From the NCBI RefSeq assembly GCF_001677475.2, contig NZ_CP015229.1: DNA of 64,000 nt; one strand, given 5' to 3'. The position numbers were made by a program, and so were the translations under genes. This DNA comes from Escherichia coli (GTDB taxonomy: Bacteria; Pseudomonadota; Gammaproteobacteria; Enterobacterales; Enterobacteriaceae). Below the pieces are notes generated by a model that saw only the letters and a list, made by a program, of their open reading frames with translations, searched no databases and was not told where the DNA came from. Below are positions 10,259-10,386 of this stretch, in pieces. Each line of letters starts with the position of its first letter. Position 1 is the first letter of the stretch.

Positions 10259-10281
10259 GCGGGCTACTGTACCTAAAATGT

Positions 10282-10364
10282 CGGATGCGACGCTGACGCG
10301 TCTTATCCGACCTACGGGGAGCGCATGTGTAGGCCGGATAAGGCGTTTACGCCGCATCCGGCAA
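10282..10364. repeat. Pair of inverted REP elements (BIME-like) between convergent norW and hypF
   Basis: cggatgcgacgctgacgcgtcttatccgacctac and gtaggccggataaggcgtttacgccgcatccggca. The plus ORF 10325..10510 (CRPDKAFTPHPAM) is the classic REP translation artefact. Confidence 0.85.
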
Positions 10365-10386
10365 TGGTGTCCAAATGCAGCACGTT

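Follow-up and report, generated by a model that had tools for sequence, protein, structure and literature searches.

The palindromes between norW and hypF and after ascB in the window (the whole 64-kb stretch of Escherichia coli DNA that was analyzed) are, with very little room for doubt, ordinary E. coli REPs organized as BIMEs, and the PDKAFTPHPA open reading frames (ORFs) that recur at both junctions are artefacts of REP translation and not genes. The flagged elements belong to a long-known class, and nothing in the knowledge of REPs is altered by them. The E. coli REP is an imperfect palindrome of 30-40 nt, with GTAG at the foot of the stem and a mismatch within it, and occurs as types y, z1, and z2 (PMC3333891). 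In BIME-1, z1 and y flank a long L linker with an IHF site, BIME-2 combines z2 and y with a short linker in variable tandem number, and any other REP combination is an atypical BIME; the REP total of K-12 is 584 (PMC3333891).

Gene identities in the window were obtained by comparison with K-12 and other RefSeq genomes. The gene order was the srl operon, norR, norVW, hypF-hydN, ascG, ascFB, the hyc and hyp clusters, fhlA, mutS, and rpoS, with a CRISPR-cas locus forming the last part of the window, beyond rpoS. Against 5,426 complete E. coli genomes, best identities were 96-98% (norW-hypF, 97.7%; ascB-hycI, 96.1%; mutS, 97.2%), with approximately 3% divergence from all of them, and an exact search with a junction 55-mer gave no match among GTDB species representatives. 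The lineage of the window appears, on sequence grounds, to be an Escherichia poorly represented among complete E. coli genomes. A CRISPR array of about 11 repeats, which contain CGGTTTATCCCCGCTGGCGCGGGGAACAC and recur every 61 bp, was also observed at approximately 56870-57530, downstream of iap; the array was not reported by Rfam at gathering thresholds, and the minus-strand ORFs past it are presumably cas genes.

For the REP census, 12 REPs from an unlinked 50-kb region of K-12 (yjbB, pgi, malEF, lamB-malM, ubiA-plsB, and alr) were aligned and turned into a covariance model that included the REP stem, and the whole 64-kb window was scanned unfiltered with this model. Unlinked K-12 loci were used because circularity was to be avoided. 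The types y, z1, and z2 were assigned with blastn-short against the three consensus sequences. Five strong REPs were found (36-60 bits, E = 5e-8 to 8e-15), together with two weaker elements:

3773-3802, plus strand: single Z1-type REP in the srlD-gutM spacer, 44 nt past the srlD stop codon (36.1 bits, E = 5.3e-8).
10279-10315, plus strand: Z2-type REP, TGTCGGATGCGACGCTGACGCGTCTTATCCGACCTAC, left half of a BIME-2 unit (48.6 bits, E = 1.4e-11).
10316-10328: short linker of 13 nt, GGGGAGCGCATGT, between the CTAC and GTAG ends, in the S-type position of BIME-2.
10329-10363, minus strand: Y-type REP, GTAGGCCGGATAAGGCGTTTACGCCGCATCCGGCA, with GTAG and the stem mismatch (60 bits, E = 8e-15).
12679-12706, minus strand: REP-like perfect hairpin in the hydN-hypF spacer, with no CTAC tail (22.1 bits, E = 5e-4).
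17636-17670, plus strand: Y-type REP, TGCCGGATGTGGCGTGAACGCCTTATCCGGCTTAC, with a TTAC tail for CTAC (47.6 bits, E = 2.7e-11).
17671-17686: linker of 16 nt, ATAGTTCGTGCGACAT, inverted relative to E. coli K-12.
17687-17716, minus strand: Z1-type REP, GTAGGCCCGATAAGCGCAGCGCATCGGGCA, with GTAG (37.2 bits, E = 2.6e-8).
45626-45662, plus strand: relic of a decayed Z2-type REP, located past the MarR-family gene and pointing toward the rpoS terminator (8.8 bits, E = 3.2).

A sequence-only reading of this DNA had claimed REP pairs between norW and hypF and after ascB and a single copy after srlD, and had named a scan with a REP model as the check. The scan upheld both the identity and the pairing of the copies with an independent K-12 model: the two pairs were located at the convergent junctions norW/hypF and ascB/higA-like, and the srlD copy was recovered at 3773-3802 with 36 bits. 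A search with the 34-nt Y consensus, allowing up to 3 mismatches, gave 2 matches in the window vs. 0.00 expected (100 shuffles). Rfam at gathering thresholds reported nothing in the whole window; it has no REP family and is therefore uninformative for REPs. The K-12 RefSeq record contained no repeat_region features and hence no curated REP names.

All five strong copies (30-37 nt) folded into hairpins, at -11.5 to -21.6 kcal/mol (z = -3.2 to -6.6). GTAG or CTAC was present at the foot of the stem in four of the five, the exception being the ascB Y copy with TTAC, and the unpaired stem position was found in all five predicted structures and in the model alignments. Every copy was extragenic, lying between annotated genes according to the K-12 and other RefSeq annotation. 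The window copies behaved as dispersed repeats, in that they matched a model made from unlinked K-12 REPs, and a 1-kb query containing the pair hit a median of at least 26 places per E. coli genome. REPs are non-autonomous substrates of the domesticated Y1 transposase TnpA-REP (RAYT), and variation in copy number and linker is the result; the tnpA-REP gene of E. coli lies outside this window. TnpA-REP needs GTAG and the stem mismatch, together with a CT at which it cuts, located in either the linker or the inverted copy (PMC3333891). GTAG and the stem mismatch occurred together in four of the five copies, which are predicted substrates; the ascB Y copy, with TTAC in place of CTAC, may perhaps no longer be one.

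The spacer between norW and hypF measured 128 bp (10259-10386), with the stop codon of norW at 10258 and that of hypF at 10387. The span previously assigned to the pair, 10260-10386, was essentially this entire spacer, whereas the REP pair proper covered 10279-10363. The Z2 REP began 20 nt past the norW stop codon and carried CTAC after its hairpin (-20.8 kcal/mol, z = -6.6). The Y REP had one mismatch to the Y consensus (-21.3 kcal/mol), and its end was 23 nt from the hypF stop codon. With z2 on the plus strand, 13 nt of linker, and y on the minus strand, and with a duplicated unit in other strains, this pair is one BIME-2 unit, in which z2 and y are inverse and their CTAC and GTAG ends face each other over the short linker. 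The unit was single both in the window and in K-12, and the two copies differed by one base in a loop and by one base in the linker.

At the second junction, the ascB stop codon ended at 17628 and the spacer extended from 17629 to 17741. The Y REP (-21.6 kcal/mol) began 7 nt past the ascB stop codon, and 25 nt lay between the end of the Z1 REP (-14.7 kcal/mol) and the higA-like stop codon. Because the linker was 16 nt long and was not the long L motif of the published definition, the ascB pair is classified from its sequence as an atypical BIME, y plus z1 over a short linker, and IHF binding would not be expected. An IHF-binding BIME-1 was considered for this pair and ruled out, the linker being 16 nt vs. 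36 nt in K-12 ubiA-plsB.

Each strand of each pair could form either the stable REP hairpins or one long inter-REP hairpin, in all cases with no U-tract. The norW/hypF pair folded at -57.8 and -60.7 kcal/mol on its two strands (z = -3.8 and -6.2, respectively), and the ascB pair folded at -45.7 kcal/mol on the ascB strand and -37.8 kcal/mol on the other. GC-rich hairpins between convergent genes could also be bidirectional Rho-independent terminators that resemble REPs by chance, but this explanation is highly unlikely. The stems were followed by a T-run on neither strand, and a terminator scan (hairpin, then T-run) found no site inside 10259-10386 or 17629-17741. Moreover, matches to the REP model were as strong as E = 8e-15 and took in the stem mismatch as well as the GTAG/CTAC tail, which is not part of the structure. 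In contrast, a terminator of the classical kind, with a hairpin and a T-run, was present for rpoS, which lies downstream of the relic. The palindromes are thus read as REPs and, given that neither spacer contained a hairpin with a T-run, as the sole strong 3′ structures of the convergent transcripts.

REPs at the 3′ ends of mRNAs act in protection against 3′ exonucleases and in transcription attenuation (PMC12306157, PMC3333891), and a REP that starts <16 nt after a stop codon can reduce upstream translation (PMC12306157). DNA gyrase binds BIME-2, with a preference for y REPs (PMC6379681). By analogy with this established biology, a single pair would end both transcripts of a convergent junction in a structure that stops 3′-to-5′ exonucleases, and it could also attenuate transcription. 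Gyrase binding at the BIME-2, if it carries over from other REPs, would be sensible between convergent genes. The distance to the stop codon was <16 nt for ascB (7 nt) and for the marR-like relic (9 nt), but not for norW (20 nt), hypF (23 nt), the higA-like gene (25 nt), and srlD (44 nt); the hairpin that follows ascB could, under the <16-nt rule, damp its translation.

Three of the REP-bearing junctions were convergent: norW/hypF, ascB/higA-like, and marR-like/rpoS. Two of the seven elements had co-directional neighbors, namely the Z1 REP of srlD-gutM (3773-3802) and the hydN-hypF hairpin (12679-12706), and we take each of these couples to be co-transcribed within one operon. The description of REPs as markers of operon ends, which had been offered for this region, therefore held for the three convergent junctions but not for the two elements between co-directional genes (srlD-gutM and hydN-hypF). 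Accordingly, REPs mark the space past stop codons and not necessarily the ends of transcripts.

The Z1 REP of the srlD-gutM spacer (3773-3802) was conserved in K-12. As a separate observation, a perfect 10-bp stem-loop (GCGGAGATCC CTTAA GGATCTCCGC) was located at 3735-3759 on the plus strand, between the srlD stop codon, which it directly follows, and the Z1 REP; no T-run followed its stem.

The REP-like copy reported after the marR-like gene was found to be REP-derived but decayed in this genome. The ORF upstream of it had a Pfam MarR match, and the element started 9 nt past the stop codon. It scored only 8.8 bits, and its CTAC had been lost, yet it was stable (-21.5 kcal/mol, z = -5.5). It aligned base for base with a 36.2-bit Z2 REP at the same junction of strain A8, and we regard it as a decayed REP because of this orthology to an intact REP of 36 bits. 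The substitutions in the relic both closed the stem mismatch and destroyed CTAC. Homology with strains that lack the MarR-family gene and have ygbN beside rpoS (e.g., MLI023K2) began at 45683-45691, approximately 25 nt past the relic and just before the rpoS terminator hairpin; on these alignments, this position is the edge of a strain-variable region adjoining rpoS.

The hairpin at 12679-12706, which was missing from the earlier reading, had a 12-bp stem (-20 kcal/mol), and the same element was present in strain GN03204. The annotated start of hypF is the ATG at 12639; a 774-aa ORF that starts at the GTG at 12711 was over-extended across the hairpin. The stem mismatch was gone from both this hairpin and the marR relic, and their sequences would fit selection that kept the hairpin once the element had escaped the transposase.

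The linker of the ascB pair differed from that of K-12 in orientation: in its central 26 nt, 23 of 26 positions were identical to the K-12 reverse complement vs. 15 of 26 when read directly. Among complete E. coli genomes, 447 had the orientation of the window and 2,835 had that of K-12. Orientation was independent of the higBA insertion or deletion, as strain SCEC020001 combined higBA with the K-12 orientation and strain EC1515 combined higA with the window orientation. Strains with a single Z1 REP showed the K-12 orientation only, which fits an inversion that needs flanking inverted REPs. No explicit report of linker inversion within BIMEs was found in the literature searched, the coverage of which was incomplete, so that novelty is unproven. 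The inversion is a minor detail inside the known variability of BIMEs. A joint reading, in which hairpins that have escaped the transposase are retained by selection and BIME linkers flip recurrently, either through TnpA-REP cutting at CT sites on both strands or through template switching in the REP-REP hairpin, is rather doubtful; if it were true, BIMEs at large would hide a reversible polymorphism in the orientation of their linkers.

BIMEs are a source of polymorphism (PMC1187871), and a comparison of REP content between strains, proposed as a second check in the sequence-only reading, showed that the norW/hypF and ascB junctions were both variable. Four states of norW/hypF were observed in the sampled strains: no REP, one REP with a truncated Z2, two REPs, and a duplicated unit. 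The truncation of Z2 was an 18-bp deletion. The duplicated unit (approximately 98 bp) consisted of Z2, a decayed Y, Z2, and Y, of which three REPs were detectable, and it was present in at least 812 genomes. The REP-less junction was found in 681 genomes, with a different sequence in the place of the REPs. This form, as in E. coli 005008 (locus 360-436), had another GC-rich palindrome (CTCCCTCGCCC AAA GGGCGAGGG) and a different 3′ end of hypF.

At the ascB junction, the hairpin of the Y REP was absent in O157:H7 8368, MS1718, and MRSN346355, in which CTAC or TAC was left, followed by the linker and Z1. Judged by these sequences, the ascB Y REP appears to be polymorphic as a single REP, either present or absent. 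Strain GN03204 had lost the asc operon except for the last approximately 60 nt of ascB (locus 2320-3030), and it carried an insertion of approximately 600 bp inside the ascB BIME, between the loop of the Y REP and the Z1 REP. The insert contained a 145-aa ORF with a DUF4259 match below threshold (18.3 bits vs. the 22.8-bit cut-off). In the window, the segment between the ascB BIME and hycI (17736-18396) contained an orphan higA-like gene (17742-18161, minus strand; HTH_3 match, HigA-family antitoxin) and fragments of higB, all absent from K-12. This insert started 19 nt beyond the ascB Z1 REP. Other E. coli strains had a complete higB-higA between ascB and hycI, with or without an extra hypothetical gene.

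The suggestion that the REPs are possible insertion breakpoints was thus well supported, since REP number, REP presence, and neighboring insertions all varied among E. coli genomes. The indel-prone junctions, together with the resemblance of REPs to the subterminal hairpins of IS200/IS605 and the processing of REPs by a related Y1 transposase (PMC3333891), would also suit an origin of the pairs as remnants of an insertion sequence or of a MITE end. Such an origin is extremely improbable here: the pairs had neither a transposase ORF nor a longer shared flank, their flanks were locus-specific and collinear with K-12, and the copies matched the y, z1, and z2 classes of dispersed REPs. Taken as REPs and BIMEs, the elements explain, by their positions, several small strain differences at the gene junctions of this region. 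On a small scale, BIME dynamics are cleanly illustrated by the inverted linker and by the Y REP that is either present or absent.

The PDKAFTPHPA peptide was encoded by two ORFs:

10325-10510, plus strand: artefact ORF of 61 aa, MCRPDKAFTPHPAM..., a translation of the Y REP followed by the antisense of the hypF 3′ end.
17381-17710, minus strand: artefact ORF of 109 aa, ...LCKPDKAFTPHPAM..., a translation of the ascB Y REP followed by the antisense of the ascB 3′ end.

The opening codons of the first ORF, ATG TGT AGG CCG GAT AAG GCG TTT ACG CCG CAT CCG GCA ATG, are the GTAG strand of the Y REP; the second ORF reads the ascB Y REP on the corresponding strand and in the same frame. The two peptides had been described as near-identical, and 12 of 13 residues were indeed identical. 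When up to 2 mismatches were allowed, PDKAFTPHPA occurred at exactly 2 sites in the six-frame translation of the window, both of them Y REPs, and in an unrelated region of K-12 each of the six Y REPs encoded it, often beside stop codons. The attribution of the peptides to the REP pairs was correct in that they are REP-derived, but only the Y-type copies produce them, the GTAG strand encoding them in one frame; no such peptide comes from the Z1 or Z2 partners. Any y-type REP yields a PDKAFTPHPA ORF when its GTAG strand is translated in that frame and no stop codon is close by.

In Pfam, no family was found for the 61-aa ORF, and none reached threshold for the 109-aa ORF. Compared with 5.8 billion protein clusters, the 61-aa ORF had 2 relatives, the REP peptide itself being too short for significance. 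One was the ORF of the same locus in an E. coli record, the second matched the hypF-antisense part only, and neither relative showed a protein family. No CDS was annotated (PGAP/RefSeq) at either ORF in the RefSeq genomes examined. The ORFs therefore lacked what would identify a protein-coding gene (a domain, homologs beyond the repeat in the case of the 61-aa ORF, and a RefSeq CDS), and the earlier judgment that both are artefacts is supported by the similarity confined to the REP and by the empty Pfam and CDS results. That the two ORFs are real small proteins with a conserved PDKAFTPHPA motif is scarcely conceivable: both frames open with ATG starts and one NCBI E. coli record calls the same-locus ORF a hypothetical protein, but the likeness is limited to 13 REP-encoded residues, with the remainders antisense to hypF or ascB and mutually unrelated, an unrelated region encodes the peptide at each of its Y REPs, with stop codons breaking the frame around it, and neither the Pfam and cluster searches (no match; only 2 relatives, for the 61-aa ORF) nor the RefSeq genomes examined, in which both are unannotated, offer a protein. 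As REP translations, they matter for annotation hygiene: ORFs with CRPDKAFTPHPA are translated y-type REPs and are to be masked.

Among known systems, the pairs resembled the Pseudomonas REPINs and their RAYTs described by Bertels and Rainey (PMC3116915) in being inverted REP doublets, which here folded as long hairpins, and REPINs and E. coli REPs are both tied to a domesticated Y1 transposase. Unlike Pseudomonas REPINs, they belong to a different REP sequence family in a different host. The PDKAFTPHPA ORFs were similar to the spurious-ORF families of AntiFam (PMC3308159), as recurrent peptides from a translated non-coding repeat. That source lists families of CRISPR, tRNA, rRNA, and shadow-ORF origin, whereas the PDKAFTPHPA peptide is REP-derived. 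The ascB pair shared with the BIME-1 of K-12 ubiA-plsB the inverse arrangement of y and z1 and the convergent junction, but had a linker of 16 nt vs. approximately 36 nt (the L motif) at ubiA-plsB. The norW/hypF pair was comparable to the BIME-2s of K-12 malE-malF and lamB-malM, with z2 followed by an inverse y and with the CTAC and GTAG ends facing. Its linker was slightly shorter (13 nt vs. 14-15 nt) and, unlike the arrangement, was not shared in sequence with either of these BIMEs. The number of BIME-2 units at norW/hypF varied among strains, as has been described for BIME-2 (PMC3333891).
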